From: Candidatus Tiddalikarchaeum anstoanum | GTDB taxonomy: Archaea; Nanobdellota; Nanobdellia; Tiddalikarchaeales; Tiddalikarchaeaceae | Length of the DNA: 64,000 nucleotides | Reading direction: 5' to 3' | Assembly: GCA_902385255.1 (NCBI GenBank) | Contig: CABMEV010000010.1 | Span: forward strand, 64,114 to 128,113 | The notes under the pieces: model-generated | Databases searched by the model: none | What the model saw: the letters and a program-made list of their open reading frames with translations, nothing else | What the model was told of the DNA's origin: nothing | Position numbers and translations under genes: made by a program | Shown: positions 28,228 through 64,000 of the stretch, in pieces | Layout: every line of letters starts with the position of its first letter | How positions within the stretch are numbered: the first letter of the stretch is position 1

Positions 28228-30870
28228 ATGAAGAATAAGAAGGAATCTAAAAAAGCAGATGATGAAGAGGAGTTAGAATTAGACTTTGACTCAGTCTTTG
28301 AGTATGTGAAGACGCACAAGTTTGTAATCACGATTATAGGCATAATATTGGCACTCGGTGTCACTTGGATTGTAAGAACGCAGGATATACCGAATTTTGT
28401 AGGCGGAATACTTCCAGACCTTGACACTTACGTATTCCTAAGATACGCTAATGATATTATAACAAAAGGCGCGATACCGCTCAATGATACGATGCGTTAC
28501 TACCCTACAGGTTTTGACACTACTAGTGAATTAATGACTCCTTCTTATGCAATTGCGGCAATTTACCGCATACTTAATTTGTTCACTAATGTGAGCGTCA
28601 ATGATGCTGCAATACTATTTCCTGTCATTACAACCTGCATCGGCATGATATTCTTCTTTTTAATAGCGCACGATGCTTTTGGAAACGCTGTCGCCGTAAT
28701 ATCATCACTGCTACTTGCAGTAAGCCAGGGATTTCTTTACAGGACCAGCGCCGGAGTCCCGGAGAAAGAGCCTATAGCAATAATGTTCTTATTTCCAATG
28801 ATATATTTCATACTTAAGGCAATCAGGAATACCGACCTCAAAAAGAAAATAATATACTCTTTGCTTTGCGGAGTTTGTATAATCGGTTCTGCAGCGTCAT
28901 GGGGAGGTTCAAACTTCACGTTCATACCTTTGGAGATAACGCTATTCTTGCTTGTGATGTTCGGAGTCTCAACGAGAAAAGACTCAATAGTCTACTTCAT
29001 ACTTGTGTTGTCCATATTAGGCATTACTTTAGTCTCAGGACGCTATGGAGTATTCCTTGACATCTTCAAGAATTATATGTTCATACTCTTTGTCCCAGCA
29101 CTATTCCTCAACTTATTCGTGCACGAATTATACCCTAAGTTAAACAGTTTTGTTTCAAAGTACAAGCCTTCCTTCCTGTCAGAACAGTTCTACTCAGTTC
29201 TTCTTGGAATATTTATCCTGTTCATTTTAACACTAATATATCCAGGTATTAGTTATTACTCTTACCTCTTCAAATTCGCATTTGAACGAATCAATAATCC
29301 ATTTGGCTCCGACCCGTTCGCATTAAGCGTCAGTGAGAACCAAGCGCCTTATTTTTATGACCCAAGCAGCCACGTCGACTGGTGGTCGCCTTTAAACTAT
29401 ACTTTTTTCACAATGTTGCTCGGCTCATTTCTGTTATTCTACGAATTATTGAAAGAGTTTAAGCATTCACGATTAATACTGACCATTACTTATGTCGCGT
29501 CAATAGTATTATTCATATTTGCGCGCTTTAGCAGCGACTCGAAATATGCATGGATTAACAATATAATGGACCAGCCATTCCTGGGACTGCAGCTTCACCA
29601 CTGGGTGCTGTTTTCATTCTTCGCCTATTTTGCATTCTTCACATTCAAGAATAACAAGAGAGTTGAAGCATTCAAAAAATTCAGGCCAGAATACTTATTC
29701 CTGTTCTTATGGTTCCTCCTTTCAGCAATAGGTGCAAGCGGAGGAGTAAGATTAATATTCGCAGTGTGCCCTCCGGCAATGATACTGTCAGGATACTTTT
29801 TCAGGAAGCTCTTTGACATAATAAACAGGTTCGTCGAATCTAAGACGCTTGCATCATCAGCGTATGTCCTGGCAATAATACTTATTGGGTATAACCTTTT
29901 CGTATCAATTAATCTTAACAAGAACATTTATCCAAGTTTCACATCAGAATGGAATGATGCAATGAACTGGGTGAAGTTAAACACACCTATTGACAGCGTC
30001 TTTGCTCACTGGTGGGATTATGGCTACTGGGTTCAGACAATGGGTGACAGGGCTACAAACCTCGACGGTGGAAACTTCTTCGTAGACCGAGACCACTTAA
30101 TGGGCAGGTACTTATTCGCATCAAGGGTGTTTAATAACGGGACTTATAATATGAGCGAGCCGGCAACAGCGCTTGTCAGGAACTTTGGAAGCCCTGAGTA
30201 TTTCTTAATAATAGATGATGATGTGTTAAAGTACGTCCAGATGGGAAGGATTGGAAAAAGACCAATGTATTACACAGTAGGAATACCTGACCAGACAATG
30301 ACCAACGACGTAAGGTTCAACATAGCTAACGCTTCAACTTACCCTTCAATTGCAGTCTATAAATCAATTTATGGCGCTTTCCCTGTGCAGGAAGACTTCA
30401 AGTATAATAATTTCCTTTACAAGGCAGGGCAGACTTACATAGTGAACATATTATTCCCTTACAACGAAACTGACGTGTCTCCGAAAGCTTATGCTGCCGT
30501 ATACAACTCTTATGCTGACAGTGCAAATGTCAAACTAGTACCTTTCAACTGTTACTGCACGTACGGCGAACAATGCTATTACTATAGGAATGACGGATTG
30601 CCTGAATGCACTTACTTGGTGAGCGATGGTGTAGTATTAATACCTCAGAATGCAAGCAATAACTTGTTCACACAATTATACCTGCTCAATGCTACAGTTC
30701 CAGGATTCGAAATAGCATATGATAATGACAGGCTGTTAAACATTCAGGGAATGGTCAGTCAAAGCCTTACAGACATTAAGATTTACAAAATAAATTATAC
30801 AGCACTCGACCCGTTCGTGTTAGACTCAGTGCCTAATTACTGGACTACAACAGGCGGAGTATTCTGGTAA
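28228..30870 (+). CDS. aglB: Archaeal oligosaccharyltransferase AglB (STT3 family)
   Basis: 880 aa. N-terminal multi-TM domain. WWDYGYW signature (AHWWDYGYWVQTMGD). Acidic LPDLDTY loop motif near the N-terminus. Large C-terminal soluble domain. Confidence 0.92.
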   Translation: MKNKKESKKADDEEELELDFDSVFEYVKTHKFVITIIGIILALGVTWIVRTQDIPNFVGGILPDLDTYVFLRYANDIITKGAIPLNDTMRYYPTGFDTTSELMTPSYAIAAIYRILNLFTNVSVNDAAILFPVITTCIGMIFFFLIAHDAFGNAVAVISSLLLAVSQGFLYRTSAGVPEKEPIAIMFLFPMIYFILKAIRNTDLKKKIIYSLLCGVCIIGSAASWGGSNFTFIPLEITLFLLVMFGVSTRKDSIVYFILVLSILGITLVSGRYGVFLDIFKNYMFILFVPALFLNLFVHELYPKLNSFVSKYKPSFLSEQFYSVLLGIFILFILTLIYPGISYYSYLFKFAFERINNPFGSDPFALSVSENQAPYFYDPSSHVDWWSPLNYTFFTMLLGSFLLFYELLKEFKHSRLILTITYVASIVLFIFARFSSDSKYAWINNIMDQPFLGLQLHHWVLFSFFAYFAFFTFKNNKRVEAFKKFRPEYLFLFLWFLLSAIGASGGVRLIFAVCPPAMILSGYFFRKLFDIINRFVESKTLASSAYVLAIILIGYNLFVSINLNKNIYPSFTSEWNDAMNWVKLNTPIDSVFAHWWDYGYWVQTMGDRATNLDGGNFFVDRDHLMGRYLFASRVFNNGTYNMSEPATALVRNFGSPEYFLIIDDDVLKYVQMGRIGKRPMYYTVGIPDQTMTNDVRFNIANASTYPSIAVYKSIYGAFPVQEDFKYNNFLYKAGQTYIVNILFPYNETDVSPKAYAAVYNSYADSANVKLVPFNCYCTYGEQCYYYRNDGLPECTYLVSDGVVLIPQNASNNLFTQLYLLNATVPGFEIAYDNDRLLNIQGMVSQSLTDIKIYKINYTALDPFVLDSVPNYWTTTGGVFW

Positions 30871-30876
30871 AAAAAC

Positions 30877-31902
30877 ATGATAGTTTCGCTTATAACACTG
30901 ACTGTAAGTTTCTTAGTGACTTACTTTATCACACCTCTTTTCATAAACTATTTTAACAGTATTGGGCTCGTAAACAGCGACGTTCATAAAAAAACAAAGA
31001 CAATAGTTGCAAACAGCGGGGGAATACCTGTAATCTCAGGGATAGTAATGGGCCTGTTTACTTACATAGCATTAAAGACGTTCATTTACAAGGATGCAAC
31101 AAGCCTTATAGAATTATTCAGCGCCATAACAAGCATATTAATAATAACATTCTCAGGATTCCTTGACGACTTAAACAGCAAACCCCAAAAATACGAAGGG
31201 TTCACTTACAAATCAGGCCTAAAACAATGGCAGAAACCTTTGTTTACACTGCCAGCAGTAATACCTTTAATGGTGATTAATGCAGGAGAAACTACAATGA
31301 GCCTGCCTTTGCTAGGACTTGTGAATTTCGGATTATTATACCCCTTAGTGCTCATCCCACTTGGCATAGTCGGATGCGCTAATATGGTAAACCTCCTTGG
31401 AGGATTTAACGGCTCGGAAGCAGGTATGGGCATAATATACACATTAAGCCTTGGTCTTTACGCATTATATGCGCATCAGAATATTGCTGCAATAATCTTA
31501 TTGTCTACAACAGTGAGCCTCATCGCATTTTTGAATTTTAACTTTGCACCGGCAAGAATATTATCAGGCGACAGTTTAACGTATGCTTTGGGAGGAATAG
31601 TTGCAGTGTGCGCAATACTTGGCAACATGGAGAAATTTGCACTTGTAACAATGAGCTTGTTTATAATAGAATGGATACTGAAACTACGATCCTTACATGA
31701 CTTGAAACACTTCGCGACGAGCTTGGGGCACCTTGATAAGAAAACAATGCTGATAACATCAAAATATGACAAAGTGTACTCCTTAACTCATATAGCCATG
31801 GGAAAGAATGGTTCAACAGAGAAAGTAATTGCAGTCAAACTTGTCGCGCTGCAGATACTTGTTGCAGTAATTCCATGGATACTTTTTGTCAAAATAGTAT
31901 AA
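30877..31902 (+). CDS. Polyprenyl-phosphate sugar-1-phosphate transferase (GT4 MraY/WecA/AglH-like), the first committed step of lipid-linked glycan assembly
   Basis: 341 aa with about 10 TM. DDxxD-like FLDDLNSK. NMVNLLGGFNGSEAG matches the NxxNxxDGxDGL motif of GPT-family enzymes. Confidence 0.7.
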   Translation: MIVSLITLTVSFLVTYFITPLFINYFNSIGLVNSDVHKKTKTIVANSGGIPVISGIVMGLFTYIALKTFIYKDATSLIELFSAITSILIITFSGFLDDLNSKPQKYEGFTYKSGLKQWQKPLFTLPAVIPLMVINAGETTMSLPLLGLVNFGLLYPLVLIPLGIVGCANMVNLLGGFNGSEAGMGIIYTLSLGLYALYAHQNIAAIILLSTTVSLIAFLNFNFAPARILSGDSLTYALGGIVAVCAILGNMEKFALVTMSLFIIEWILKLRSLHDLKHFATSLGHLDKKTMLITSKYDKVYSLTHIAMGKNGSTEKVIAVKLVALQILVAVIPWILFVKIV

Positions 31903-31915
31903 TTTTTTTTATTTT
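31903..31915 (+). terminator. Oligo-T terminator (T8 a T4)
   Basis: TTTTTTTTATTTT immediately after the TAA at 31900-31902. Confidence 0.5.
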
Positions 31916-32784
31916 GTAGTCTCAACTCTCTGCCAAACCTGTTTGAAACTCTTTTTTACCAGCCTGTCGTAAAATGTTAAAATCCATAAGTAAAGTCTTA
32001 TCGGGAATAATAACAAACTCCATACTAATTCAATGGGGTTCTTTGCGTAACTTAATGCGTAACTTGGGCCTTTTATTATTTCATTTTTCAGGCTTCGCAT
32101 TTTGACATCTTGTCTGAAATAATTATTTATCTGATGGTATCCTCCTGCACTCCTTCTTTTCTGCTTAATCCAATCTGACAAAGTTGTCGGGTATTTTACG
32201 AAAACTTCAGCCTTTGGCGAGTAAGCAGTATCGTAGCCTTTGCTCCAAACATAATGGCTGATATATGCATCTTCGCTTAACAGGTTTGGAGGAAGCTCTT
32301 TTACTATCCCTTTTCTTAATCCCAACAAGTAGCCGCTGCAGTCGATGAATAATTTTTTGCTGCTCCTCTTTAATCTTTCATTATGCGCAGCTTCAACTAA
32401 TAAATGCGACCAGTAGCCTAGCATATTATTCTTAGGGTTAATGCTGACTACTCTTCCGCTTGCGCAGCCGACGTCGCGGTTTTTGAAAGCGTCAATCATG
32501 TAATTAATGCTGTTTTTGCCAAGGTAAGTGTCGCCATCGCATAATATCATAACTTCACCTTTAGCTTGTTCAAAACCCAGGTTTAAGGCTGCAAATTTTC
32601 CAATACCTTTATCCTTGAAAATCCTCGCCTTTTTGTAAGACTCTTTTGCAGACATAAGCGTCTCCTTGTCAGGTGCGATAACTAAAACTTCAAAAGGTTC
32701 GCTTATTTTTTGAGAAGTAATCGATTTTAAGCACTTATTTATCGTTTTTTCCTCTTTATATGCGGTAACTATTATTGAAATCAT
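31909..32784 (-). CDS. Family 2 glycosyltransferase
   Basis: 291 aa. MISIIVTAYKEEKTINKCLKSI, DGD motif (MILCDGDTY). Confidence 0.85.
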   Translation of the reverse strand: MISIIVTAYKEEKTINKCLKSITSQKISEPFEVLVIAPDKETLMSAKESYKKARIFKDKGIGKFAALNLGFEQAKGEVMILCDGDTYLGKNSINYMIDAFKNRDVGCASGRVVSINPKNNMLGYWSHLLVEAAHNERLKRSSKKLFIDCSGYLLGLRKGIVKELPPNLLSEDAYISHYVWSKGYDTAYSPKAEVFVKYPTTLSDWIKQKRRSAGGYHQINNYFRQDVKMRSLKNEIIKGPSYALSYAKNPIELVWSLLLFPIRLYLWILTFYDRLVKKSFKQVWQRVETTK

Positions 32785-32818: not shown

Positions 32819-33772
32819 ATGAAAAAGGCCGAAAAAGTTAGCAAGCATAAAAAATTCAAGTTTGACACAAGAATATTCGCAGTAATAGGAATATTAATTT
32901 TTTTATATATCATTTCAAAATCTAACCTGGCATACTTATTCTCCGTCCTTGCAAACCTTGATTATAGATTTGTAATCTTGTCATTTTTAATCACAATATT
33001 AACAATAGTGTTAAAGAGCGTGAAGTGGAAATTATTAATAACTGAGGCAAAGTTTGATTATTCTATTGCCCGTTCAATCATTGTTTGGGTTATAAGTTTC
33101 GCTTACGGTTTTATTACTCCCGGAAGGGCAGGTGACTTCATAAGGGTCTTCTACTTAAAGCAGGATGCTGATATTCCAAAAAGAAAAGGATTCATTATAT
33201 GCTTATTAGACAGGTTAGTTGACCTGGCAAGCCTGGCGATTATAACGCTGGTGCTTTATTCAGCATCAATAAACATACCATTCCAGCTAATAATGATAAT
33301 AATATTATTTTCTTTAGTGTCAGTACTCCTTGCAGTAATACTCGACAAACTGGTTAAGTACTCCCATGAAAGAATCAAATCTTTATACTATCTTTCTAAG
33401 GATTTCGTAATTGAGGTATTTAAGATGTACAGTCCAAAACAAGTGTTTTTCCCTTTCTCAATAAGTATTACAAGCTGGTTTTTCAGCTTCCTGCAGAGTT
33501 TCCTGATACTGCTTGCGATGGGAAAAACAGTTCCTTTCCTCATCTTTAGCACTGCAACATCCACGGCAATACTAGTAAGCCTTCTCCCAATAAGCATAGG
33601 AGGTCTTGGAACTACAGAGGCAACCCTTTATTTCTTTCTGTCATCTTATTTAAGCATGGAAGAGGTTATTGCATTAGCATTTGTCTCAAATGTTGTAGGA
33701 TTATGGATACCTGCCCTTATTGGTTTTGTGCTTAATGGTTTTAAAAAATTAGAAGGTGAAAAATTAAAATGA
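32819..33772 (+). CDS. UPF0104 flippase-like membrane protein (lysyl-PG-synthase TM-region family)
   Basis: 317 aa with about 8 TM. N-terminal pattern ...LANLDYRFVILSFLITILTIVLKSVKWKLLI is typical of this family. Its stop overlaps the next GT2 start (ATGA). Confidence 0.65.
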   Translation: MKKAEKVSKHKKFKFDTRIFAVIGILIFLYIISKSNLAYLFSVLANLDYRFVILSFLITILTIVLKSVKWKLLITEAKFDYSIARSIIVWVISFAYGFITPGRAGDFIRVFYLKQDADIPKRKGFIICLLDRLVDLASLAIITLVLYSASINIPFQLIMIIILFSLVSVLLAVILDKLVKYSHERIKSLYYLSKDFVIEVFKMYSPKQVFFPFSISITSWFFSFLQSFLILLAMGKTVPFLIFSTATSTAILVSLLPISIGGLGTTEATLYFFLSSYLSMEEVIALAFVSNVVGLWIPALIGFVLNGFKKLEGEKLK

Positions 33773-34428
33773 TCAGCGTAGTCGTGCCGACTTATAATGA
33801 GAAAGAGAGCGTCAGCGAATTCTTAAGAGTGTTAAAGCAGAATTTGAAAACAGAATTTAATGTTATCATGATAGATGACTCTAATGATAATACTGCAAAA
33901 GTTGCAGAAACATCATGCAAACAATTAGGTATTAAATCAGTAATCATCCACAGGAGAGGAAAGAAAGGCAAAGGAAGCGCAGTAGCCGACGGGCTTAAAC
34001 TCGCAAAAGGAGACACTATAGTAATAATTGATGCAGACTTGGAATACCACCCGCGCTATATAACTCCCATGATAAAAAAGTTATCAGACTGCGACGTAGT
34101 CACCGCTGTAAGGATAAGGCGTGATGTATGGTACAGGCAGATACTTGGTGCATTATTCAAATTCGCAGTAAGATTGATGTTTGGAATACCTTTCGAAACC
34201 CAGTCAGGATTGAAAGTTATGAAAAGAAGCGCTGTTAAAAACATAGAAATTGAAAGCATAGGATGGTCATGGGATGTAGAATTCATCAAAAAATTAATGA
34301 ATAATAAAGCAGTGATTTGCACGCACACAATCCCTTACACAACAAGGGAGTTTGGAAGCAGCAAGATTAATTTTTTTACGCCAATTCAGATGCTTTTAGA
34401 TTTGATTGTTCTCAGGTTTAAGTTATAA
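33769..34428 (+). CDS. Polyprenyl/dolichyl-phosphate hexose synthase-like GT2 (DPM1/GtrB-like)
   Basis: 219 aa. MISVVVPTYNEKESVSEF...IMIDDSNDNT...GKGSAVADGLKLAKGDTIVIIDADLEYHP. Confidence 0.8.
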   Translation: MISVVVPTYNEKESVSEFLRVLKQNLKTEFNVIMIDDSNDNTAKVAETSCKQLGIKSVIIHRRGKKGKGSAVADGLKLAKGDTIVIIDADLEYHPRYITPMIKKLSDCDVVTAVRIRRDVWYRQILGALFKFAVRLMFGIPFETQSGLKVMKRSAVKNIEIESIGWSWDVEFIKKLMNNKAVICTHTIPYTTREFGSSKINFFTPIQMLLDLIVLRFKL

Positions 34429-53016: not shown

Positions 53017-53713
53017 AAATGATAATCTGGTTGGAATTGTCTTTGAAGAGATTGCTCAGCGGGAACAGGAGGAATTTGCGTATAACTGCATATCTAGAAA
53101 GTACAGGAAGGTCAAATAATATGCCTGAATATTTTAAAATCTCAAATCCGGATGTTTCTATTAACTTCTTCAGTTCTTTTGAGCTGTACCTTTTTTCACT
53201 CCAGCTCTTTTTATTTTTAGAGTAGATTACATCCTCCTCTGTTTTTTTACTAATTAACTTGTATAATATTTTTTTAATATTATCCTTATTTCCCAGACTT
53301 AGAATCAAATGGCCGTTTTTCTTGATTACTCTGTGTAATTCGTGCATCATCAAATTTTTATCATGATAGTATAATGTCTCCATACATAGAACTACATCAA
53401 AAGATTCGTCTTTGAACGGCAGTTTTACTGCATTCCCGACGAATACTTTTTCAATACTATTTTTTGCCCTAATAGCTGCCTGAAAGGATACGTCAATACC
53501 TATTATGTTGTCATAGCCTAATTCTTTTGAAAAGAAGCCTTCTCCGCATCCAACGTCGAGAATCCTTAATTTCTTATTATCTAGCGAATTCAGATAACTT
53601 TTTGTCTTCTTTACTCGCTCATAAAATTTTTCAGCCCTTATCTTGTTAGTAAATATTTCCCACGCATCTTTTCCCTTCTTATAGTAGTCTTCGAAAAATT
53701 CATTCTCATTCAT
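53000..53713 (-). CDS. Class I SAM-dependent methyltransferase
   Basis: 237 aa. ILDVGCGEGFFSKEL, FDVVLCMETLYYH. Confidence 0.8.
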   Translation of the reverse strand: MNENEFFEDYYKKGKDAWEIFTNKIRAEKFYERVKKTKSYLNSLDNKKLRILDVGCGEGFFSKELGYDNIIGIDVSFQAAIRAKNSIEKVFVGNAVKLPFKDESFDVVLCMETLYYHDKNLMMHELHRVIKKNGHLILSLGNKDNIKKILYKLISKKTEEDVIYSKNKKSWSEKRYSSKELKKLIETSGFEILKYSGILFDLPVLSRYAVIRKFLLFPLSNLFKDNSNQIIIFARKK

Positions 53714-57430: not shown

Positions 57431-58378
57431 ATGACTATCTTGGTTACAGGTTCAGCAGGCTTTATCGGTTCTCATATAGTTCAGAAACTTTTAGAAAAAG
57501 GAGAGAAAATTATTGGCGTGGACAATTTTGACATGCTTTATGAGCCATCCTATAAGCTTCGCAACATTTCAGAATTCGTAGATAATAAGAATTTTATATT
57601 CAAGACTATTGATTTTAGGAATTTTAAGGATGTGGAATCCTTATTCAAAGAATATCCTATAACAAAAATAATACATCTTGGCGCAAGAGCAGGCGTTAGG
57701 CCTTCAATAGATGACCCTTTCATTTACCAGGATATTAATGTAAAAGGCACGCTTAATCTTTTAGAATTGGCCAGGCTTAATAAAATCCAAAATTTTATTT
57801 TCGCATCATCTTCAAGCGTTTATGGAAACTCCAAAAAAGTGCCTTTTAATGAAATGGATTCCGCAGACAGGCCAATCTCTCCTTATGCGGCAAGCAAAAG
57901 GGCTGCTGAACTATTATGTTTTAACTATAGCCACCTGTATAATATTCCCGTTTCATGTTTGCGCTTCTTCACTGTTTACGGCCCAAGGCAGAGGCCCGAG
58001 ATGGCTATAGCGAGTTTTACAAAAAAGATTGATGAAGGAAAAGAGATATCTCTGTACGGAGATGGAGATTCAAGCAGGGATTACACTTACATTGATGACA
58101 TAACAGACGGTATTCTGAAAGCATTAAATAAGAAATTCAGTTACGAAATAATAAATCTTGGAAATTCAAATCCTATAAAACTTAAATACTTGGTTTCACT
58201 TATTGAGAAAGAATTAGGCAAAAAAGCAGTTATTAAATTCCTGCCAAAACAAGCAGGGGATGTTGAAACAACATACGCTGATATCTCAAAAGCCCAAAAA
58301 TTATTGGAGTATAAACCTTCAATAACAATAGAAGAGGGAATTAAAAGGTACGTAGTGTGGTATAAGAAGAACAAATAA
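57431..58378 (+). CDS. NAD-dependent nucleotide-sugar epimerase/dehydratase (UDP-glucose/glucuronate 4-epimerase-like)
   Basis: 315 aa. MTILVTGSAGFIGSHIV, catalytic YAASKRAAE. Confidence 0.85.
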   Translation: MTILVTGSAGFIGSHIVQKLLEKGEKIIGVDNFDMLYEPSYKLRNISEFVDNKNFIFKTIDFRNFKDVESLFKEYPITKIIHLGARAGVRPSIDDPFIYQDINVKGTLNLLELARLNKIQNFIFASSSSVYGNSKKVPFNEMDSADRPISPYAASKRAAELLCFNYSHLYNIPVSCLRFFTVYGPRQRPEMAIASFTKKIDEGKEISLYGDGDSSRDYTYIDDITDGILKALNKKFSYEIINLGNSNPIKLKYLVSLIEKELGKKAVIKFLPKQAGDVETTYADISKAQKLLEYKPSITIEEGIKRYVVWYKKNK

Positions 58379-58382: not shown

Positions 58383-59213
58383 TTATAATACGTAGCCTAT
58401 TGCGAATATTAAATTTCTTATAATGCTAATAAACGATAATTTAATCTTATAACCCAGACTCAGATTATCATACCTTATTATATTTATAATAAATATAATC
58501 AGTAATAGCGGCGGGAAAACTACGGCGGTTAAGAATAATATAATTTTGGCTGCAGGGAGATTATTATTCTTTATGTAAAATTTATGCATGTTTTTCGAGA
58601 ATTTCCATGTTCTTTTAACTAATTTTGTCATACTGTCAGGTTCGCCTAAATGATACTGGACTGCTTTTTTTTCAAAAAATATTTCGTATCCTAATTTTCT
58701 TATTCTTATACCTAAATCAATATCCTCCCCATATTCGAGCGTTTCGTCAAAGCCGCCTGCTTCTCTTAATACTTTTTTTCTTAAAATCCACGCGTTTTTC
58801 GGGCTGAAATTATTATTTTGGCGCAATTCAAATTCTTCCTGCAGTGTTTTCGCAACCCAAGTTTTAGGTTGGTACAATTCCCTTTTATCGAGCATGCAGG
58901 ATATTTTAGCGTCCGTCATCCTCATCTTGACTATTTTAATATAATTATCATAATAAATTGAGTCTGATTCTATGAAGATTATAACGTCATTTTTTGCATT
59001 TTTCCATCCCGTATTTCTTGCAGCCGAACGATTGCATCTTTTTTTAATTATTTTAGCGCCGTATCTTTTTGCAATGTCTAAAGTTTTATCTGTTGAATAA
59101 GAATCAACTATTATTAACTCGTCATTTTTTTCTAATTGTTTGTTTAATGAATATAAGCAGGCGTCAAGTGTTTTTTCCGTATTTATTGTTGGAATTACTA
59201 AACTAATATTCAT
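58383..59213 (-). CDS. Family 2 glycosyltransferase with a C-terminal TM anchor
   Basis: 276 aa. MNISLVIPTINTEKTLDACLYSL...IIFIESDS, hydrophobic C-terminal tail. Confidence 0.8.
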   Translation of the reverse strand: MNISLVIPTINTEKTLDACLYSLNKQLEKNDELIIVDSYSTDKTLDIAKRYGAKIIKKRCNRSAARNTGWKNAKNDVIIFIESDSIYYDNYIKIVKMRMTDAKISCMLDKRELYQPKTWVAKTLQEEFELRQNNNFSPKNAWILRKKVLREAGGFDETLEYGEDIDLGIRIRKLGYEIFFEKKAVQYHLGEPDSMTKLVKRTWKFSKNMHKFYIKNNNLPAAKIILFLTAVVFPPLLLIIFIINIIRYDNLSLGYKIKLSFISIIRNLIFAIGYVL

Positions 59214-59240: not shown

Positions 59241-59993
59241 TTATTTCTTTTTAAAATAGTCCCATGCTTCTTCTACGCTGTCCCAGTTTCCCATATCCAA
59301 GTACATCGCATTTGTTGATACTACTTTTATCTTTTCGCCGTTCTTCAGCGCTGTCTTGAATACGTCAGGGACTTGGTATTCTCCTTTTAATCCAGGGGGA
59401 GTCTTCTCGATGTAGTCAAACACTTTCTTGTTGAATATGTAAATGCCAAGATTAACCAAGTATTTCCCGTTTACTTTGAATGGTTTTGCCTGTTCAAGTG
59501 TCGGCTTCTCAATTGTGTCAACTAATTCTCCTTTGTCATTGACTCTTAGTATTCCGTAAAGTGTCGGGTTATCAACTTCTCTGGCTAAGATAGTGGCAAA
59601 AGGCTTCTCCTTCTTGTGAACAAGGACTGCTTTTTTCATCTCATCTTCTGGATTAATAAAAGCATCACCAACGTGAACAATGAAATCCTCATCTATCCAT
59701 CCTTTTCCCTGCAGAATCGCGTGAGCAAGACCTTTTCTCTCTTCCTGAAATAAGTAGCCAATCTTCAATTTTCCGCTGTTAAACATTGTTCCATCACCTA
59801 AGTGGTCTATGATTGCACCCTTATGGCTTCCTACTATTACAAATATCTTATCAACGCCTGCGTAATTGTGCAATGTTTCAACAACGTGGTCAATGACGGC
59901 TTTTCTCTGGACGGGGAATAATTCTTTTGGGTTTGCTTTTGTGAATGGGTACATCCTTGTGCCGCTTCCTGCTGCTGGTATTAATCCAATCAT
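59241..59993 (-). CDS. Sugar-1-phosphate nucleotidyltransferase (short form, glucose-1-P thymidylyl/uridylyltransferase-like)
   Basis: 250 aa. MIGLIPAAGSGTRMYPFTKANPKELFPV. Confidence 0.85.
   Translation of the reverse strand: MIGLIPAAGSGTRMYPFTKANPKELFPVQRKAVIDHVVETLHNYAGVDKIFVIVGSHKGAIIDHLGDGTMFNSGKLKIGYLFQEERKGLAHAILQGKGWIDEDFIVHVGDAFINPEDEMKKAVLVHKKEKPFATILAREVDNPTLYGILRVNDKGELVDTIEKPTLEQAKPFKVNGKYLVNLGIYIFNKKVFDYIEKTPPGLKGEYQVPDVFKTALKNGEKIKVVSTNAMYLDMGNWDSVEEAWDYFKKK
59918..59990. repeat. ~70-bp near-identical direct repeat, copy 1 (5' end of nucleotidyltransferase gene)
   Basis: ggggaataattcttttgggtttgcttttgtgaatgggtacatccttgtgccgcttcctgctgctggtatta. Confidence 0.75.
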
Positions 59994-59995: not shown

Positions 59996-60787
59996 TTATT
60001 TTTTCACATCCTTTTCCTCTTTTTTAAGATTTCTAAAAAATTCGTTGGCTTTCTCGACACTCTCCCAGTTTCCTATATCTATATACTCGCCTTTTATTTT
60101 CACTACGCGTATCTTTTTGCCGTCTTTCAATGCCAGCTTTATAGAGTCTGTTATCTGGTACTCATCCTTTACACCTTTCGGGGTCTTTTCGATGTAAGAA
60201 AAAATCTCAGGTGAGAATATGTAAATCGCAGTCAGCGCCAAGTATTTATTACCCACTTTGTAGCTCTTTGCCTGTTCTAATGTCGGCTTCTCAAAAGTAT
60301 CAACTAAGTAATTTTTATTATCAACTTTTACAATACCATGATGAGTCGGGTCCTCAAGTTCAGTGACGAGTATTGTTGCAAAAGGCTTCTCCTTCCTTTG
60401 AATATTAACAGCATCCTTTAATTCGTCTTTAGGATGGATGAATGAATCTCCTGCGTGAACGATGAAGTCCTCGCTAATCCAGTTTTTTGCCTGGTAAATC
60501 GCGTGCGCGAGTCCAAGACGCTCTTCCTGAAAAAGGTATGCTATGCTTAAGTCGTTGCTGTCATCTTTGCCTCCGCTTCCAACGTGGTCTATTATTGCAC
60601 CTTTATGGCTTCCGACGATTATTAGTATCTTGTCAACACCCATGTATTTGTGCAAAGATTCTATTACGTGGTCTATCACTGCACGCCTCTCTATTGGGAA
60701 TAATTCTTTTGGGTTTGCTTTTGTGAATGGGTACATCCTTGTGCCGCTCCCTGCTGCTGGTATTATTCCTATCATTCTTTCATCCAC
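59996..60787 (-). CDS. Sugar-1-phosphate nucleotidyltransferase, tandem paralogue
   Basis: 263 aa. MIGIIPAAGSGTRMYPFTKANPKELFPI. The first ~30 aa are nearly identical to the downstream copy. Confidence 0.85.
   Translation of the reverse strand: MDERMIGIIPAAGSGTRMYPFTKANPKELFPIERRAVIDHVIESLHKYMGVDKILIIVGSHKGAIIDHVGSGGKDDSNDLSIAYLFQEERLGLAHAIYQAKNWISEDFIVHAGDSFIHPKDELKDAVNIQRKEKPFATILVTELEDPTHHGIVKVDNKNYLVDTFEKPTLEQAKSYKVGNKYLALTAIYIFSPEIFSYIEKTPKGVKDEYQITDSIKLALKDGKKIRVVKIKGEYIDIGNWESVEKANEFFRNLKKEEKDVKK
60700..60772. repeat. ~70-bp near-identical direct repeat, copy 2
   Basis: tgggaataattcttttgggtttgcttttgtgaatgggtacatccttgtgccgctccctgctgctggtatta. About 68/71 identities to copy 1. The rest of the two genes are far more diverged. 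Confidence 0.75.
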
Positions 60788-61713
60788 TCAATCATTTTTG
60801 CCAAGCCCGTTTCGAGTTTTATTTTAGGAGACCAGTTTAAGAGCTTTTTAGCTTTGGTGATATCAGGAACTCTCTGCGGAGGGTCGTCCATTGGCAGGTC
60901 TTTGAAAATTATCTTCGATTTGGAATTCGTGACTTTTACTATTTTTTTTGCAAGTTCCAGAATGGTAACTTCTTCAGGGTTGCCTATGTTGATAACTTCA
61001 CCATTTAACTCCTTCTTCGTTGCAAGCGTGTATATTCCTTCAATTAAATCATCGACGAAGCAGAAACTCCTAGTCTGTTTCCCGTCTCCGTAAATAGTTA
61101 TTGGTTCATTATCCAGTGCTTGCATGATGAAATTAGTCATTACCCTGCCGTCGTTGTACCTCATGTGGGGTCCGTAAGTGTTGAAAATTCTGACAATCCT
61201 GCAGTCAATGTTGAATTTGTGAATGAACTCATAGCATAACGCCTCTCCAAAACGCTTGCTTTCGTCATAACAGCTTCTTGGTCCGAAACTGTTAACGTAG
61301 CCGTAATAAGTTTCCGGTGTAGGTATCACTTCTGCCTTGCCGTAAACCTCGCTTGTGCTTGCGAATAAGAAGCGGGCGCTGTCTTTCTGTGCTTTTTTCA
61401 AAAGATTGAATGTGCCTATGCTGTTGGCGAGTAATGTGTCAAAAGAGTTAGTCTGATAATCGCTCGGGCTTGCCCTGCTTGCGAAGTGGAGTATTAAGTC
61501 AACTTTTTCAATATCATCCAGGTCTTTTGTAACATCTTTCTGCATGAATTTGAATCTTCCTGTTTTTCCAAGGTCTTCAATGTTATTTAGTGAACCAGTT
61601 CCCAAATGGTCTATGCAGATTACTTCATTGCCTGTATTTACGAATTTGCTGCAGAGGTGGCTGCCTATGAATCCAGCGCCTCCGGTAATTAAGACTTTCA
61701 TAATAGTAATCAA
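60772..61713 (-). CDS. UDP-glucuronate decarboxylase (UDP-xylose synthase)-like SDR
   Basis: 313 aa. MKVLITGGAGFIGSHLC, catalytic YDESKRFGE (UXS-type YDEGKR motif). Confidence 0.7.
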   Translation of the reverse strand: MITIMKVLITGGAGFIGSHLCSKFVNTGNEVICIDHLGTGSLNNIEDLGKTGRFKFMQKDVTKDLDDIEKVDLILHFASRASPSDYQTNSFDTLLANSIGTFNLLKKAQKDSARFLFASTSEVYGKAEVIPTPETYYGYVNSFGPRSCYDESKRFGEALCYEFIHKFNIDCRIVRIFNTYGPHMRYNDGRVMTNFIMQALDNEPITIYGDGKQTRSFCFVDDLIEGIYTLATKKELNGEVINIGNPEEVTILELAKKIVKVTNSKSKIIFKDLPMDDPPQRVPDITKAKKLLNWSPKIKLETGLAKMIEWMKE

Positions 61714-61799: not shown

Positions 61800-62570
61800 A
61801 TGAAGAGTAAGCTGTCAATAACGCTGGATGAGAAGATAATAAAATCTTTGGATAAGTACATTGACGGAGTAAATATAAGGAACCGTTCCCAAGCTATAGA
61901 GTTCTTCATATCAAAGCACTTAAGCCAGAACAGGATTGCTGTGATACTGGCGTCGAAGATAGAGCCTTTCAGGATACTTGCTAAGATAAAAGGCCAGCCT
62001 TTGATTATGCATACTGTCAAGCTTCTTCAGTCTTATAATTTCAAGAAGTTGTTCGTGATTGGCGAGAAGGAGATTTTGTCGCAGGTTTTTACTGTTCTTG
62101 GGACCGGGCAGGAGTACTTGATGAGCATAGAGTATGTTGAGGACGTTAATCCGAAGGGTAGTGCTGCGTCTCTTTCGCTTTTGAAGAATAAGGTTGATTC
62201 GACGTTTCTGGTTGTTCCTGCTGATAATTTTTTCAATACTGATATTAATTCGTTCTGGACTTTTCATGTTAAGAGCGGCAAACTGGTTAACTTGGCTATC
62301 TCTGCTGCAAGTAATCCTACGAAGCTTGGTATTATAGACTTACAGGGTGGGAGTATTGTTGGTTTTGAGCAGAAGCCTAAGAAGAGTACGAGTTATCTTA
62401 TCTGGACTGGTATTATGATTTGCGAGCCTGAGATTTTATATTATAACTGCAATTCTATTGAGAAGGATTTGATACCGAAACTTATCTTAACTCGTGACTT
62501 GGGCGGTTTCGTATTTGCAGGCCAGTGGAAGAACATACACACAAAGAAAGACATAGAAGATTTACGCTAA
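61800..62570 (+). CDS. Sugar-phosphate nucleotidyltransferase with an N-terminal ribbon-helix-helix (CopG-like) extension
   Basis: 256 aa. N-terminal LSITLDEKIIKSLDKYIDGVNIRNRSQAIEFFISKHL fits the RHH pattern (beta strand xSxTLD, helix, RxRSxxI). It is followed by an NTP-transferase fold (IAVILASKIEP...VVPADNFF). Confidence 0.6.
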   Translation: MKSKLSITLDEKIIKSLDKYIDGVNIRNRSQAIEFFISKHLSQNRIAVILASKIEPFRILAKIKGQPLIMHTVKLLQSYNFKKLFVIGEKEILSQVFTVLGTGQEYLMSIEYVEDVNPKGSAASLSLLKNKVDSTFLVVPADNFFNTDINSFWTFHVKSGKLVNLAISAASNPTKLGIIDLQGGSIVGFEQKPKKSTSYLIWTGIMICEPEILYYNCNSIEKDLIPKLILTRDLGGFVFAGQWKNIHTKKDIEDLR

Positions 62571-62888: not shown

Positions 62889-63746
62889 ATGTTTATGATT
62901 GTTCGTGAACGAATTTCTCTAACAATAGATAAAAACGTCCTGGCGGCAGTTGACGCCACAGTAGACGGCAATAAAGTACGCAACAGAAGCCATGCAATGG
63001 AGGTCTTACTCTCAAAGGCACTGGGCAACAAGCGCGTGAAGAGGGCATTCATACTCGCAGGCGGCAAAGGCACAAGACTTAGGCCCATAACTTACGAAAT
63101 ACCTAAACCAATGGTGCCAATACACGGAAAACCATTATTACAGCACACCGTAGAACTATTGAAAAAATATGACATCAGAGATATCATAATCTCAATAGGA
63201 TTCTTAGGAGAAAAAATCCAGGAATACTTCGGCAATGGCTCAAAATTTGGAGTCAAAATAAGCTACGTAAAAGAAGACGAACCTCTCGGAACAGCAGGAC
63301 CACTTAAGATTGCAAAACCATTACTTGAAGACGCGCACTTCGTCATGATAAACGGAGACAACTTATTCAACATAGACTTGTTCGATATGATAAGCACACA
63401 CTTCGAAAACGGGGCTGTAGCAACAATAGCATTAACATCAGTTAGCGATCCGACAAAATTCGGAGTAGCACAGCTAAAAGGGAGAAAGATACTGAAATTC
63501 ATAGAAAAACCCAAGCTTGAAGAAGCACCTTCCAATTTAATCAATGCAGGAGTATACTTATTCTCGCCGAAAATATTCGATTACCTGCCTGAAAACAAAA
63601 AAAATATTATGATAGAAACAGAAGTTTTCCCAAAACTCTTAGAGAAAGGAGAGTTCTATGGCTACGTCATGGAGGGACAATGGCTTCCGGCAGGAACACC
63701 TGAAGAGTATGAGAAAGCAATACAAGAATGGAGAGATATAGAATGA
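62889..63746 (+). CDS. Sugar-phosphate nucleotidyltransferase (mannose-1-P guanylyltransferase-like) with an N-terminal RHH-like extension; paralogue of 61800..62570
   Basis: 285 aa. N-terminal ISLTIDKNVLAAVDATVDGNKVRNRSHAMEVLLSKAL, then AFILAGGKGTRLRPITYEIPKPMVPIHGKP (canonical nucleotidyltransferase G-loop). An alternative start at 62895 (MIVRE) aligns better with the paralogue. Confidence 0.8.
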   Translation: MFMIVRERISLTIDKNVLAAVDATVDGNKVRNRSHAMEVLLSKALGNKRVKRAFILAGGKGTRLRPITYEIPKPMVPIHGKPLLQHTVELLKKYDIRDIIISIGFLGEKIQEYFGNGSKFGVKISYVKEDEPLGTAGPLKIAKPLLEDAHFVMINGDNLFNIDLFDMISTHFENGAVATIALTSVSDPTKFGVAQLKGRKILKFIEKPKLEEAPSNLINAGVYLFSPKIFDYLPENKKNIMIETEVFPKLLEKGEFYGYVMEGQWLPAGTPEEYEKAIQEWRDIE

Positions 63747-64000
63747 GCATATTCAAATCTTATGACATCCGCGGAGTTTACCCAACAGAGATAAACGAAG
63801 AAAACGTATACAAGATAGCAAGGGCATACATTGAATTTACAAAATTCAGAAAAATAGTAGTCGGCCGCGACATGAGACTCTCCTCACCAATGCTTTACTC
63901 TGCAATAGTAAGAGGATTAATAGACCAGGGAACTGAAGTAATAGACGTCGGCGAAGTCAGCACTCCGATGTTTTACTACGCAGTAAACAAACTTGACGCT
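63743..64000 (+). CDS. Phosphomannomutase/phosphoglucomutase (alpha-D-phosphohexomutase), partial; runs off the window
   Basis: MSIFKSYDIRGVYPTEINEENVYKIARAY...GRDMRLSSP. YDIRGV is the typical N-terminus. The start overlaps the previous stop (ATGA). Confidence 0.85.
   Translation, partial: MSIFKSYDIRGVYPTEINEENVYKIARAYIEFTKFRKIVVGRDMRLSSPMLYSAIVRGLIDQGTEVIDVGEVSTPMFYYAVNKLDA

Follow-up and report, generated by a model that had tools for sequence, protein, structure and literature searches.

Characterised class-B radical SAM (rSAM) enzymes are mostly methylases, and their C-methylation of sugars has precedent in GenK, GenD1, Fms7 and MoeK5 (PMC9204698). MoeK5, Fom3 and HpnJ cluster together with SD1168 (PMC9204698), and HpnJ acts in the hopanoid pathway, in which GlcNAc is added by HpnI, deacetylated by HpnK and ring contracted by HpnJ (PMC13459092, PMC9204698). 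In the literature searched, we found no description of an association between rSAMs and glycan islands. Here, we analyzed 64,000 nucleotides of Candidatus Tiddalikarchaeum anstoanum (the window), which a preliminary description had read as containing such an island.

Gene content of the aglB-anchored island

We established directly what the genes encode, how they are arranged in operons, which domains and fold the proteins have, and which neighbourhoods are conserved. According to Pfam and NCBIfam, 34 genes in a row are glycan-related, starting with aglB (28228) and reaching the end of the window, and the stretch that they occupy represents approximately 3% of the tiny genome of this DPANN archaeon. 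Because none of the 17 ORFs scanned in the 28 kb before aglB was a glycan gene, this clustering is not due to chance. Besides AglB, GPT, Wzx, two UPF0104 proteins and WecB/WecC, the island holds six GT2, four GT4 and one PMT_2 GT-C glycosyltransferases, two SDRs, four NDP-sugar transferases, a PMM and four class-I methyltransferases. Its content supports the earlier view of the locus as an aglB-anchored glycosylation island, and this clustering of genes for protein glycosylation and polysaccharides is genuine. Pfam, NCBIfam and motif checks bore out nearly all of the gene content and coordinates first described, including all four methyltransferases, but not the number of rSAMs. The features are as follows:

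27389..28225, +, SpoIIM-like membrane protein, 278 aa, 2-nt gap before aglB
28228..30870, +, AglB oligosaccharyltransferase, 880 aa (PF02516 STT3, 53.9 bits)
30877..31902, +, GPT/AglH-type polyprenyl-phosphate sugar-1-phosphate transferase (PF00953 Glycos_transf_4, 100 bits)
31909..32784, -, GT2a (PF00535 and PF13641)
32819..33772, +, UPF0104/LPG_synthase_TM flippase-like membrane protein A (PF03706, 131 bits)
33769..34428, +, GT2b, short, soluble, polyprenyl-phosphate-sugar synthase-like (PF00535, 91 bits)
34386..35306, -, GT2c, closing gene of TU4 (PF00535)
35303..36379, -, GT4a (PF00534, 107 bits)
36389..37966, -, GT-C fold membrane glycosyltransferase, PMT_2 type (PF13231, 58 bits, and PF02366)
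37933..39036, -, GT4b (PF00534, 75 bits)
39073..39717, -, MT1, class-I SAM methyltransferase (PF08241, 48 bits)
39721..40254, -, MT2, class-I SAM methyltransferase (PF13489, 42 bits)
40247..40915, -, GT2d, short, dolichyl-phosphate hexose synthase-like (PF00535, 132.6 bits)
40964..42127, -, GT4c (PF00534, 120 bits)
42162..43097, -, GT2e (PF00535, 84.8 bits; C-terminal TM at 254-272)
43106..44584, -, rSAM_A, B12-binding radical SAM enzyme, 492 aa (PF02310, 70.1 bits; PF04055, 81.1 bits)
44637..46202, -, unk521, 14-TM membrane protein with a C-terminal soluble part of about 110 aa
46205..47149, -, LPGtmB, UPF0104 flippase-like protein B, opening gene of TU4 (PF03706, 152.7 bits)
47232..48314, +, WecB, UDP-GlcNAc 2-epimerase (PF02350, 349 bits)
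48339..49577, +, WecC, UDP-ManNAc dehydrogenase-like (three UDPG_MGDP_dh domains)
49567..50205, -, MT3, class-I methyltransferase, closing gene of TU6 (PF08241, 74 bits)
50195..51691, -, rSAM_B, B12-binding radical SAM enzyme, 498 aa (PF02310, 79.6 bits; PF04055, 104.9 bits)
51688..53016, -, unk442, putative CE4/NodB-fold sugar de-N-acylase, 4-nt overlap with rSAM_B
53000..53713, -, MT4, class-I methyltransferase (PF08241, 69.7 bits)
53706..54821, -, probable alpha/alpha-toroid protein, 371 aa
54785..55906, -, GT4d (PF00534 and PF13439)
55903..57327, -, Wzx-type flippase, opening gene of TU6 (PF01943, 64 bits; PF13440, 62 bits)
57431..58378, +, SDR nucleotide-sugar epimerase/dehydratase 1 (PF16363, 221.6 bits; PF01370, 208.6 bits)
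58383..59213, -, GT2f (PF00535, 86.8 bits)
59241..59993 and 59996..60787, -, two NDP-sugar pyrophosphorylases (PF00483, 136 and 127 bits)
60772..61713, -, SDR nucleotide-sugar epimerase/dehydratase 2 (PF01370, 181.8 bits)
61800..62570 and 62889..63746, +, two NTP_transferases (PF00483, 62 and 177 bits)
63743..64000, +, PMM/PGM, N-terminal 85 aa, leaving the window (phmmer against PDB chains, E = 8e-15)

AglB has approximately 11 predicted TM segments and carries all catalytic motifs (DLD64, EKE179, SVSE367, WWDYG595 and the DK motif DVLKYVQM665), and its WWDYG region can be aligned to that of P. furiosus AglB (2zag). GPT, with seven TM segments, has the role of initiating enzyme. The SpoIIM-like protein itself lacked a Pfam match and was 39% identical to a protein matching PF01944 SpoIIM, which likewise sits directly 5΄ of an AglB gene in another locus (L098).

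The two rSAM genes lie in separate operons. TU4 (47149->34386) runs LPGtmB-unk521-rSAM_A-GT2e-GT4c-GT2d-MT2-MT1-GT4b-PMT2-GT4a-GT2c with intergenic gaps of at most 52 nt, and TU6 (57327->49567) runs Wzx-GT4d-toroid-MT4-deacetylase-rSAM_B-MT3 with genes that overlap throughout, MT3 sharing 11 nt with the end of rSAM_B. For the short GT2 enzymes, the closest NCBIfam families were ArnC and AglJ (GT2b) and dolichyl-phosphate hexose transferase and AglJ (GT2d), all under cutoff. The PMT_2 protein has eight TM segments and a weak match to TIGR03663 Agl23, and LPGtmB exceeded the cutoff of the TIGR00374 flippase-like domain (94 bits). No match to unk521 was found in Pfam, NCBIfam or PDB; it is a candidate Wzy-like polymerase or GT-C. 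The ORFan-like unk442 has a CE4 deacetylase fold, and the toroid protein matched Pec_lyase (31 bits), Pectate_lyase_2, squalene-cyclase repeats and GH127 weakly. WecC scored 417 bits against the NDP-sugar dehydrogenase subfamily, over cutoff, and 372 bits against the UDP-ManNAc dehydrogenase equivalog (cutoff 459). Both NTP_transferases at 61800 and 62889 begin with an N-terminal ribbon-helix-helix segment (RHH_1, 20.4 and 21.2 bits; cutoff 20.5).

Number and class of the radical SAM enzymes

The preliminary description counted three B12-rSAMs in the island and a fourth at 1-1124. However, a CxxxCxxC scan of all window ORFs and Pfam searches with each gene of the island identified only two in the island (43106-44584 and 50195-51691) and three in the whole window. 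The supposed fourth is the window's third, a partial gene at 1-1134 (start at 1134, CNGNCSFC at residue 191); its context is non-glycan, with a P-type ATPase, a response regulator and a PAS histidine kinase as neighbours.

The B12-rSAM identity of both island enzymes was upheld. PF02310 and PF04055 scored well over their cutoffs in each, and the cluster motif is CPFNCVFC at residue 222 of rSAM_A and CPFDCTFC at residue 183 of rSAM_B. The AF2 model of rSAM_B (pLDDT 86) most closely resembles solved cobalamin rSAMs, with Foldseek matches to MgmA, OxsB, CysS, TsrM, AprD4 and TokK at E of about 1e-21, and the protein ends in a hydrophobic helix (TM-like segment 469-487). Against NCBIfam, rSAM_A reached no equivalog (best, Sden_1168, 206 bits, cutoff 575; second among curated matches, HpnJ), and neither did rSAM_B, whose best matches, BchE (228 bits, cutoff 481) and HpnJ (197 bits, cutoff 577.6), were below cutoff. 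Profile matches to BchE and HpnJ begin close to the N terminus (BchE at residue 3 or 18), as fits a class-B architecture, whereas those to AprD4, which is not known to bind cobalamin, start only past the B12 domain.

Genomic neighbourhoods of related enzymes

We called neighbourhoods in the fetched loci with a crude ORF caller and phmmer seeds from this window. Relatives of rSAM_B (37-66% identity) were accompanied by WecC and/or WecB in 7/7 independent loci, as expected from an enzyme kept in glycan loci, and all six loci having enough sequence also contained Wzx, a class-I methyltransferase next to it, and a GT4. MT4-like genes adjoin Wzx in L004, L006, L008, L124 and L125; GT4d homologs (33-34% identity) occur in L004, L006 and L124, and unk521 homologs adjoin WecC in L004 and L124. 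An MT3 ortholog (67% identity) directly follows rSAM_B in L123. Between the toroid protein and a 450-aa protein of L004, L006 and L124, hhalign detected no homology.

The rSAM_A family is large (48-62% identity) and spans archaea and bacteria. For 25 orthologs (at least 50% identity) with 129 neighbouring genes, the most frequent Pfam families of the neighbours were GT2 (9), Radical_SAM (8), GT4 (5) and Wzx (5), and phmmer placed glycan genes within 4 kb of the ortholog in 10 of 22 loci; the remaining loci added matches to Poly_export, Wzx, CMP-sugar synthetase and SIS. The conserved direct neighbour is GT2e: a GT2e-like gene adjoins the rSAM_A ortholog in three loci (L010, L101 and L114) and is close to it in L098. 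In L098, a 55% identical ortholog sits in a second aglB-GPT cluster with the order SpoIIM-like-AglB-GPT-Wzx-rSAM_A-MT-GT2x3-second B12-rSAM. Thus, the expectation that rSAM_A also lies in glycan loci of relatives was confirmed in part: its orthologs are mostly beside GTs, but a 62% ortholog lies among housekeeping genes (L002) and a 53% ortholog in a fatty-acid/polyene-like cluster of ketoacyl-synthase/ACP/FabA type (L003), and both count against a role in glycan tailoring.

The latter locus is relevant to the possibility that the rSAMs modify lipid (the dolichol/polyprenol carrier or membrane lipids) and merely share glycan operons, like HpnP/HpnR and the archaeal GDGT methylases, which modify lipids. 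Many lipid-modifying rSAMs are known (PMC13459092), NCBIfam matches include HpnR and a ladderane B12-rSAM (125-151 bits), and rSAM_B has its membrane-anchoring helix. However, the Pfam scan detected no lipid-biosynthesis genes in the island, no isoprenoid or lipid synthesis gene lies near the rSAM_B relatives in the seven sugar cassettes, and GTs predominate directly beside the rSAM_A orthologs; we consider this explanation highly unlikely. The housekeeping locus would also fit rSAM genes that are mere passengers in a surface-glycan island prone to recombination, having for instance arrived by horizontal transfer with an unrelated or lost function, and that have no glycan role. Indeed, rSAM_A is 55-62% identical to bacterial proteins (Omnitrophota, Firmicutes, Patescibacteria) compared with only 26% for the AglB of L098, which suggests horizontal movement. 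Such an origin without function is nevertheless barely credible, as neither gene is disrupted or lacks a cluster cysteine, both lie in operons whose genes are tightly packed or overlap, their neighbourhood is found again in different domains, and rSAM_B is the best-conserved cassette protein (44-49% identity, compared with 24-38% for its partners).

Proposed radical chemistry in glycan assembly

We favour, tentatively and with a probability of roughly 0.45, a composite cell-surface glycan factory in which both rSAMs are operon-integral sugar tailors, most likely C-methylating. PMM, four NDP-sugar pyrophosphorylases, two SDRs and WecB/WecC would supply nucleotide sugars including UDP-ManNAcA; with dolichyl phosphate as the carrier, GPT would begin the glycan, which GT4/GT2 enzymes would then lengthen on the cytoplasmic face. 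Dol-P-sugars made by the short GT2s might be used by the UPF0104 and GT-C proteins for outside decoration, and the glycan would be flipped by Wzx and moved by AglB to Asn of surface proteins. We infer the sugar substrate of the rSAMs and the lipid-linked stage at which they act: each would act on a lipid-linked intermediate and abstract H from one of its sugar residues, with rSAM_B kept at the membrane by its C-terminal helix. The CE4 deacetylase fold of the gene overlapping rSAM_B implies an amino-sugar substrate, and in this lineage rSAM_B may follow CE4-like de-N-acetylation, its probable target being a ManNAcA-derived residue. Transfer of the methylcobalamin methyl to carbon, as with MoeK5 and GenK, would be the likeliest result, and the four class-I methyltransferases would provide O-, N- or ester-methyl groups.

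The glycosylation island in the first interpretation stands, but the C-methylation step drawn from class-B membership is only a prior. No curated cutoff was reached, and both methylases (SD_1168, PhpK) and non-methylases (BchE, HpnJ) are among the nearest families. None of the sequence features tested separates the two types. Scores of the island rSAMs at about 35-47% of the equivalog cutoffs, and a Foldseek score of AprD4, a dehydratase, equal to that of methylases, count against C-methylation.

The rSAMs could instead tailor glycan sugars by a cobalamin-assisted radical rearrangement or redox step: a ring contraction like that of HpnJ/Cds, which would turn a de-N-acetylated amino sugar into a carbocyclic (cyclitol-type) residue, loss of CO2 or epimerisation at C5 of the uronic acid, or deoxygenation. 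Consistent with this, the best curated matches of rSAM_B, BchE and HpnJ, are near full length, HpnJ ranks second for rSAM_A, LPGtmB matches HpnL weakly, and the TU6 order of GT4d, CE4-type deacetylase and rSAM_B mirrors HpnI-HpnK-HpnJ. AprD4, a sugar diol-dehydratase, is the top PDB sequence match for both rSAMs. However, these BchE and HpnJ scores lie far under cutoff, and methylases predominate among characterised class-B enzymes (PMC9204698). Similarity to AprD4 is limited to the rSAM core. Moreover, HpnK is a YdjC-type enzyme, not a CE4-type one, and the CE4-like deacetylase is limited to the window and L123. The five rSAM_B loci that are more distant lack it, so rSAM_B does not have this partner throughout its family, which also counts against our favoured reading. 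Overall, non-methylase chemistry appears somewhat unlikely.

The predicted unusually heavy methylation of the glycan was sustained as regards O-/N-methylation, which four class-I methyltransferases back, but not as regards its heaviness. These ordinary enzymes could explain all glycan methylation, leaving other chemistry to the rSAMs, and cobalamin synthesis is improbable for a DPANN genome of 1.16 Mb; both points weigh against C-methylating tailors.

Across 116 fetched loci, 41 of 185 B12-rSAM genes directly abut a GT2 or GT4. Many uncultivated anaerobes share this pairing of B12-rSAMs with glycan genes, which hints that cell-surface glycans are made with a radical step not yet characterised.

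Content and layout of the glycosylation island

Candidatus Tiddalikarchaeum anstoanum is represented by a DPANN (Nanoarchaeia) MAG of 1,159,435 bp with 36.5% GC from Australian groundwater (PMC8561730); that paper and its accessible supplements contain no mention of glycosylation or radical SAM enzymes, and cobalamin is mentioned once, concerning another MAG. The island that begins at aglB covers 35.8 kb, or ~3% of the 1.16-Mb genome. We scanned each ORF from 28228 to 64000 against Pfam, and the gene list compiled previously from the sequence alone was borne out: the island encodes GPT, six GT2 and four GT4 glycosyltransferases, a PMT_2-type GT-C protein, Wzx, two UPF0104/LPG_synthase_TM proteins, WecB, a WecC-like dehydrogenase, two SDRs, four NTP_transferases, a PMM N-terminus and four class-I methyltransferases (MT1 to MT4). 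None of the 17 ORFs scanned in the 28 kb upstream is a glycan gene; that region codes for a P-type ATPase, a PAS histidine kinase, a topoisomerase, PCMT, a DHH phosphoesterase and Orc1/Cdc6. Searches of the window for tRNAs and Rfam elements found none.

Gene units of the island, as delimited by gene spacing
Plus strand: unk278 (27389-28225, a SpoIIM-like protein), aglB, GPT
47149->34386, minus strand: TU4, 12 genes, all gaps <=52 nt; UPF0104, 14-TM protein, rSAM_A, GT2e, GT4c, GT2d, MT2, MT1, GT4b, PMT_2, GT4a, GT2c
Plus strand: wecB, wecC
57327->49567, minus strand: TU6, 7 genes, every gene overlapping; Wzx, GT4d, toroid371, MT4, unk442, rSAM_B, MT3

Because gene spacing separates TU4 and TU6, each of the two B12-binding radical SAM genes, rSAM_A and rSAM_B, lies within a different assembly operon. 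A block of precursor genes follows TU6.

AglB matches STT3 (PF02516) with 53.9 bits, has ~11 TM segments and carries the catalytic motifs DLD64, EKE179, SVSE367 and WWDYG595, together with the DK motif DVLKYVQM665; its WWDYG region can be aligned to that of P. furiosus AglB (2zag), and its score against the archaeosortase-associated subfamily TIGR04154 (82) does not reach the cutoff of 450. Judged by its sequence, AglB is a bona fide oligosaccharyltransferase. GPT follows aglB after 6 nt, and 10 GT2/GT4 genes, Wzx and the two UPF0104 proteins are clustered with them. For the two short GT2 genes at 33769 and 40247, the best-matching families are ArnC, AglJ and Dol-P-hexose transferase, and their products look like polyprenyl-phosphate sugar synthases. 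We picture a pathway, predicted from the gene set, in which the glycan or glycans made by the island would be dolichol-linked and would be transferred to protein by AglB, and in which Dol-P-sugars and GT-C enzymes would add further decoration outside.

This organization resembles that of the Haloferax volcanii agl cluster and the Methanococcus agl genes, with which the island has in common an AglB with the full motif set beside an initiating GPT, GT2/GT4 enzymes, a Wzx/AglR-type flippase, GT2s like Dol-P-sugar synthases, a GT-C protein weakly matching Agl23, methyltransferases (cf. AglP) and nucleotide-sugar genes including a UDP-sugar dehydrogenase. However, the island is larger than classical agl clusters, comprises at least two assembly operons and, unlike described Agl pathways, contains radical SAM enzymes. 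To our knowledge, no Agl pathway uses radical SAM chemistry. The word 'radical' is absent from a 2024 review (PMC11407970), no radical SAM enzyme of an Agl pathway was found in the literature searched, and nothing relevant was found there on radical SAM proteins in N-glycosylation, capsule or O-antigen loci.

The SpoIIM-like multi-pass membrane protein is encoded directly 5' of aglB, and the start of its gene shares 11 nt with the Orc1/Cdc6 gene. A protein 39% identical to it is likewise encoded directly upstream of aglB in another archaeal locus (L098, 4179-5024). The SpoIIM-like protein is a conserved candidate partner of AglB.

Architecture and family of the radical SAM proteins

The preliminary description counted three B12-binding radical SAM enzymes in the island and a fourth at the start of the window. 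A scan of each island gene and a CxxxCxxC search over all ORFs revealed no third island protein; only three long ORFs of the whole window carry the motif, namely the two in the island and rSAM_0.

B12-binding radical SAM genes of the window (Pfam cutoffs: PF04055, 29.5 bits; PF02310, 32.1 bits)
43106-44584, minus strand: rSAM_A; CPFNCVFC at residue 222; PF04055 81.1 bits, PF02310 70.1 bits
50195-51691, minus strand: rSAM_B; CPFDCTFC at residue 183; PF04055 104.9 bits, PF02310 79.6 bits
1-1134, minus strand: rSAM_0; CNGNCSFC at residue 191; PF04055 40.3 bits, PF02310 44.4 bits

Both island proteins thus combine the motif with the two domains, well above threshold. The gene for rSAM_0 is truncated by the window edge, adjoins a P-type cation ATPase gene and scores lower on both domains; we considered it as a part of the glycan system and rejected it, its context being non-glycan.

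For rSAM_B, an AlphaFold model based on 11 relatives (pLDDT 86.4) contains a Rossmann-type beta-alpha domain (residues 1-150) and a partial TIM barrel. Its C-terminal domain is helical and ends in a long hydrophobic helix (residues 465-497), a probable membrane anchor. In Foldseek searches the model matched MgmA (9ccb), OxsB, CysS, TsrM, AprD4 and TokK with E values of about 1e-21; for MgmA, OxsB, CysS, TsrM and TokK the values were 3e-22 to 6e-19, with query-normalized TM-scores of 0.63-0.70, so that the predicted fold agrees with those of solved cobalamin radical SAM enzymes. For rSAM_A, which was compared by sequence only, the PDB matches were AprD4, 9ccb, TokK and CysS.

Neither protein reached the NCBIfam equivalog cutoffs of HpnJ, BchE, PhpK, Sden_1168, AprD4, HpnR, MgmA/MJ_0865 or the ladderane family. 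The best scores of rSAM_A were against Sden_1168 (206 vs 575), HpnJ (176 vs 578) and BchE (162 vs 481), and those of rSAM_B against BchE (228 vs 481) and HpnJ (197 vs 577.6), followed by ApyD and, lower, MJ_0865 (106 vs 360) and AprD4 (101 vs 500). The matches to the BchE, HpnJ and Sden_1168 profiles reach into the B12 domain; those to AprD4 start only past it. As Sden_1168 is the best match of rSAM_A, a role as phosphonate P-methyltransferase was considered and rejected, the island having no PEP-mutase or phosphonate gene.

These comparisons bear on the reaction catalyzed. We know of no sequence motif that tells methylases from non-methylases of the BchE/HpnJ/OxsB type, and the PDB sequence and Foldseek matches do not separate methylases from AprD4. 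Fom3, MoeK5 and HpnJ co-localize in the main sequence cluster of the class, in which the function of SD1168 is unknown, and because this cluster also holds the non-methylases BchE, HpnJ and the ladderane enzyme (PMC9204698), the architecture proves class-B membership, not methyl transfer. We rank C-methylation first among the possible reactions, at slightly less than even odds, ahead of a non-methylating radical rearrangement or redox step, which we regard as rather unlikely. The previous prediction of a methylated glycan is plausible. Given the class-I methyltransferases, methylation at O or N or as an ester is likely; the specification 'C-methylated' reflects a class prior only.

Genomic context of relatives

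The preliminary description had proposed asking whether the radical SAM genes of related genomes stand in glycan contexts. For rSAM_B, which has ten full-length close relatives (37-66% identity), this is the case in all retrievable loci, each of which is a polysaccharide cassette (L123, 66%; L004/L005, 49%; L006/L007, 48%; L124, 44%; L125, 39%; L008/L009, 38%). WecC recurs as a partner, alone or together with WecB, and so do GT4 and a Wzx adjoined by an MT4-like class-I methyltransferase. The gene order of L123 is that of the window, unk442-rSAM_B-MT3 convergent with wecC-wecB, with identities of 51-72%. In distant loci, rSAM_B is the best-conserved member of the cassette (44-49% vs 24-38% for its partners). 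A Hepar_II_III protein and Wzy_C are added in L008 and L125, and Wzz is also present in L008.

Fe-S proteins of the FrhB_FdhB type and of DUF362 adjoin rSAM_B relatives in four loci (L004 8568-9929, L006 8512-9933, L124 3539-6082 and L125 7093-8628). They could be dedicated reductants of the radical SAM enzyme or of cobalamin; no counterpart was found in the window. Another candidate for conservation was toroid371 (53706-54821), which was compared with the 450-aa and Hepar_II_III proteins found alongside rSAM_B relatives to see whether it is their ortholog. No homology was revealed by phmmer or by hhalign, and the proteins have only the same weak alpha-toroid Pfam families in common; toroid371 was therefore not counted as a conserved partner.

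The family of rSAM_A is larger, with 3377 matches at E <= 1e-20, of which the best 120 show 48-62% identity; named relatives belong to Nanoarchaeota, Omnitrophota, Firmicutes, Patescibacteria and others. Because few close relatives were among the matches listed in the genome-collection scan, the context of rSAM_A orthologs rests mainly on metagenome contigs. Neighborhoods were called with a simple ORF caller, with window proteins as phmmer seeds. At 25 ortholog loci (>=50% identity), the 129 neighbors within 4 kb, counted by Pfam family over all loci pooled rather than by individual locus, were most often GT2 (9), Radical_SAM (8), GT4 (5), Polysacc_synt (5) and Methyltransf_21 (4), followed by hexapeptide and NDP-transferases. 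Glycan genes lay within 4 kb of the ortholog in 10 of the 22 loci with adequate flanks (phmmer); among the neighbors at the remaining loci were Poly_export, two Wzx, two CMP-sugar synthetases and two SIS proteins, as well as plain housekeeping genes. As in the window, a GT2e-like gene abuts rSAM_A in L010, L101 and L114 (73% identity).

The contexts of rSAM_A are mixed. On the glycan side is a second aglB cluster, on the AT-rich archaeal contig L098, in the order SpoIIM-like protein (39% to unk278), AglB (26%), GPT (41%), Wzx, rSAM_A (55%), a methyltransferase, three GT2, a second B12-radical SAM protein, an RmlD-like protein and, further on, PMT_2. Since this locus repeats the layout of the island, the association of aglB with the radical SAM gene is not unique to Ca. 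Tiddalikarchaeum anstoanum. An exception is L001 (58%), where the ortholog belongs to a sugar-modification cassette without glycosyltransferases (GFO-oxidoreductase, hexapeptide acetyltransferase, DegT aminotransferase). Further exceptions, on the non-glycan side, are L002 (62%), where it lies among RNA-ligase and deoxyhypusine-synthase genes, and L003. Surroundings such as those of L002 are what would be expected if the radical SAM genes were passengers, a reading to be set beside the polysaccharide cassettes of every retrievable rSAM_B locus and one that we hold to be most improbable. We consider it likely instead, with a probability of about 0.8, that rSAM_A and rSAM_B are tailoring enzymes of the glycan assembly of the island, more so for rSAM_B than for rSAM_A.

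In L003 (1-12300), from a Firmicutes MAG, an rSAM_A ortholog of 53% identity is part of a ketoacyl-synthase/KR/ACP/FabA/thioesterase cluster, which also encodes two BtrH_N/DUF4872 proteins and an FkbM methyltransferase; its product looks like a lipid or polyene, not a glycan.

Over the 116 retrieved loci, 41 of the 185 B12-radical SAM genes directly abut GT2 or GT4. In a contig of Patescibacteria, bacteria of the candidate phyla radiation (L069, 3918-11400), an STT3/AglB-like ORF, the best phmmer match of which is the AglB of the window, lies within 6 kb of a B12-radical SAM gene that is flanked by two GT2 genes. Arrays of 3-6 B12-radical SAM paralogs within 20 kb were observed in Bathyarchaeia (L021, L026, L029-L032, L039, L040); almost no glycosyltransferases were detected near them, and they appear to represent a different use of the same superfamily.

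Comparison with known systems and implications

The gene unk442 (51688-53016) has no Pfam or NCBIfam match. A word-indexed search returned only unk442 itself, and an exhaustive search of 1.84 billion representatives yielded 11 relatives, with D132, D134, H233, R280, H282, D303 and H383 conserved. Its predicted fold is that of CE4, and on this basis it is a putative sugar deacetylase, whose association with rSAM_B is limited to the window and L123. TU6 thereby encodes together a glycosyltransferase, a putative sugar deacetylase and a B12-radical SAM protein, the layout of the hopanoid side-chain module of HpnI (GT), HpnK (deacetylase) and HpnJ (B12-radical SAM, ring contraction) (PMC13459092). 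The order is parallel, and the sugar on which all three act, or in TU6 would act, is lipid-anchored. Among curated families, HpnJ ranks second for both radical SAM proteins, at about one-third of its cutoff, and one UPF0104 protein of the island weakly matches HpnL. Unlike in the hopanoid module, the putative deacetylase has a CE4 fold, and the acceptor is presumably a dolichol-linked glycan. No squalene-hopene cyclase or other hpn/hopanoid gene was found in the window. We judge it improbable that the radical SAM enzymes modify a lipid.

For glycan tailoring, there are precedents in antibiotic pathways, where GenK, GenD1, Fms7 and MoeK5 are class-B radical SAM sugar C-methyltransferases (PMC9204698). 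The island proteins share their B12-binding Rossmann domain and radical SAM barrel, and are likened to them by architecture and by their putative sugar substrate; however, methylation by the island enzymes is putative, and the context is a primary cell-surface glycan or N-glycosylation rather than secondary metabolism. MoeK5, which methylates the uronic-acid unit of a lipid-linked saccharide, may be the closest functional analogy to the ManNAcA-linked cassette. A different reaction is exemplified by AprD4, the radical SAM 1,2-diol dehydratase of apramycin biosynthesis (PDB 6fd2), which acts on an amino sugar and works without cobalamin. It is the best PDB sequence match of both proteins and gives the highest target-length-normalized TM-score (0.75) for the rSAM_B model, with the likeness confined to the radical SAM core (rSAM_B residues 172-372); unlike in AprD4, the N-terminal domain of the island proteins fits canonical B12-binding profiles.

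Loci for ManNAcA-containing, Wzx/Wzy-dependent polysaccharides include those of the enterobacterial common antigen and S. aureus CP5/CP8. The island resembles them in having WecB and WecC (UDP-ManNAcA supply) beside GT4 and Wzx, and the bacterial-type relatives of the cassette extend the likeness to Wzy_C (L008, L125) and Wzz (L008). We know of no B12-radical SAM gene in the classical loci. In the window, Wzx is present and neither Wzy_C nor Wzz gave a match; since unk521 (44637-46202) has no Pfam, NCBIfam or PDB match, assignment of this 14-TM protein as Wzy or GT-C remains a guess.

We propose tentatively, as a somewhat doubtful extension, that rSAM_A and rSAM_B represent two unrecognized cobalamin-type radical enzyme families that tailor lipid-linked surface glycans, and that the rSAM_B cassette is a mobile module of DPANN archaea and bacteria. 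If this is true, archaeal N-glycans and Wzx-dependent polysaccharides would contain, as the product of these enzymes, an amino- or uronic sugar that is C-methyl-branched, ring-contracted (carbocyclic) or rearranged in another way, and radical SAM chemistry would be known for the first time from protein N-glycosylation. DPANN archaea and uncultivated anaerobic bacteria would have in common the cassette of WecB/WecC, radical SAM protein, class-I methyltransferase, Wzx and GT4. A host-dependent archaeon would also need scavenged cobalamin for its cell surface, linking surface biogenesis to cobalamin scavenging.

Archaeal N-glycans are chemically very diverse, and the surface of DPANN episymbionts is the site of host contact. 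Ca. Tiddalikarchaeum anstoanum is uncultivated; we know of no glycan from it and of nothing on DPANN surface glycans. Relatives of the island radical SAM proteins recur beside glycosyltransferases in Nanoarchaeota, Bathyarchaeia, Omnitrophota, Patescibacteria and others, and, if these enzymes modify sugars, they would constitute a widespread, unstudied class of glycan-tailoring reactions in anaerobes, with new C-methyl or carbocyclic residues. The rSAM_B cassette offers a testable entry point, with UDP-ManNAcA as likely donor, a defined glycosyltransferase, a putative deacetylase and a methyltransferase.

Three further features of the window were observed. The N-terminal ~50 aa of the plus-strand NTP_transferases at 61800-62570 and 62889-63746 match ribbon-helix-helix (CopG) at about the threshold (20.4 and 21.2 bits vs a cutoff of 20.5); they are possibly fusions of a DNA-binding domain with a sugar-nucleotidyltransferase that also regulate the island. 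The 326-nt intergenic region 25979-26304, upstream of orc1/cdc6, directly adjoins the glycan island and may be a replication-origin neighborhood; a single inverted pair of 20 nt was found in it, with 80% complementarity and a separation of 175 nt, and ORB-type repeats were not clearly present. Finally, a response regulator and two kinases are encoded at 3756-12328, one a histidine kinase of 1798 aa with at least eight PAS domains and the other a 7TM-HisKA kinase; this sensory apparatus is unusually elaborate for a 1.16-Mb DPANN genome.
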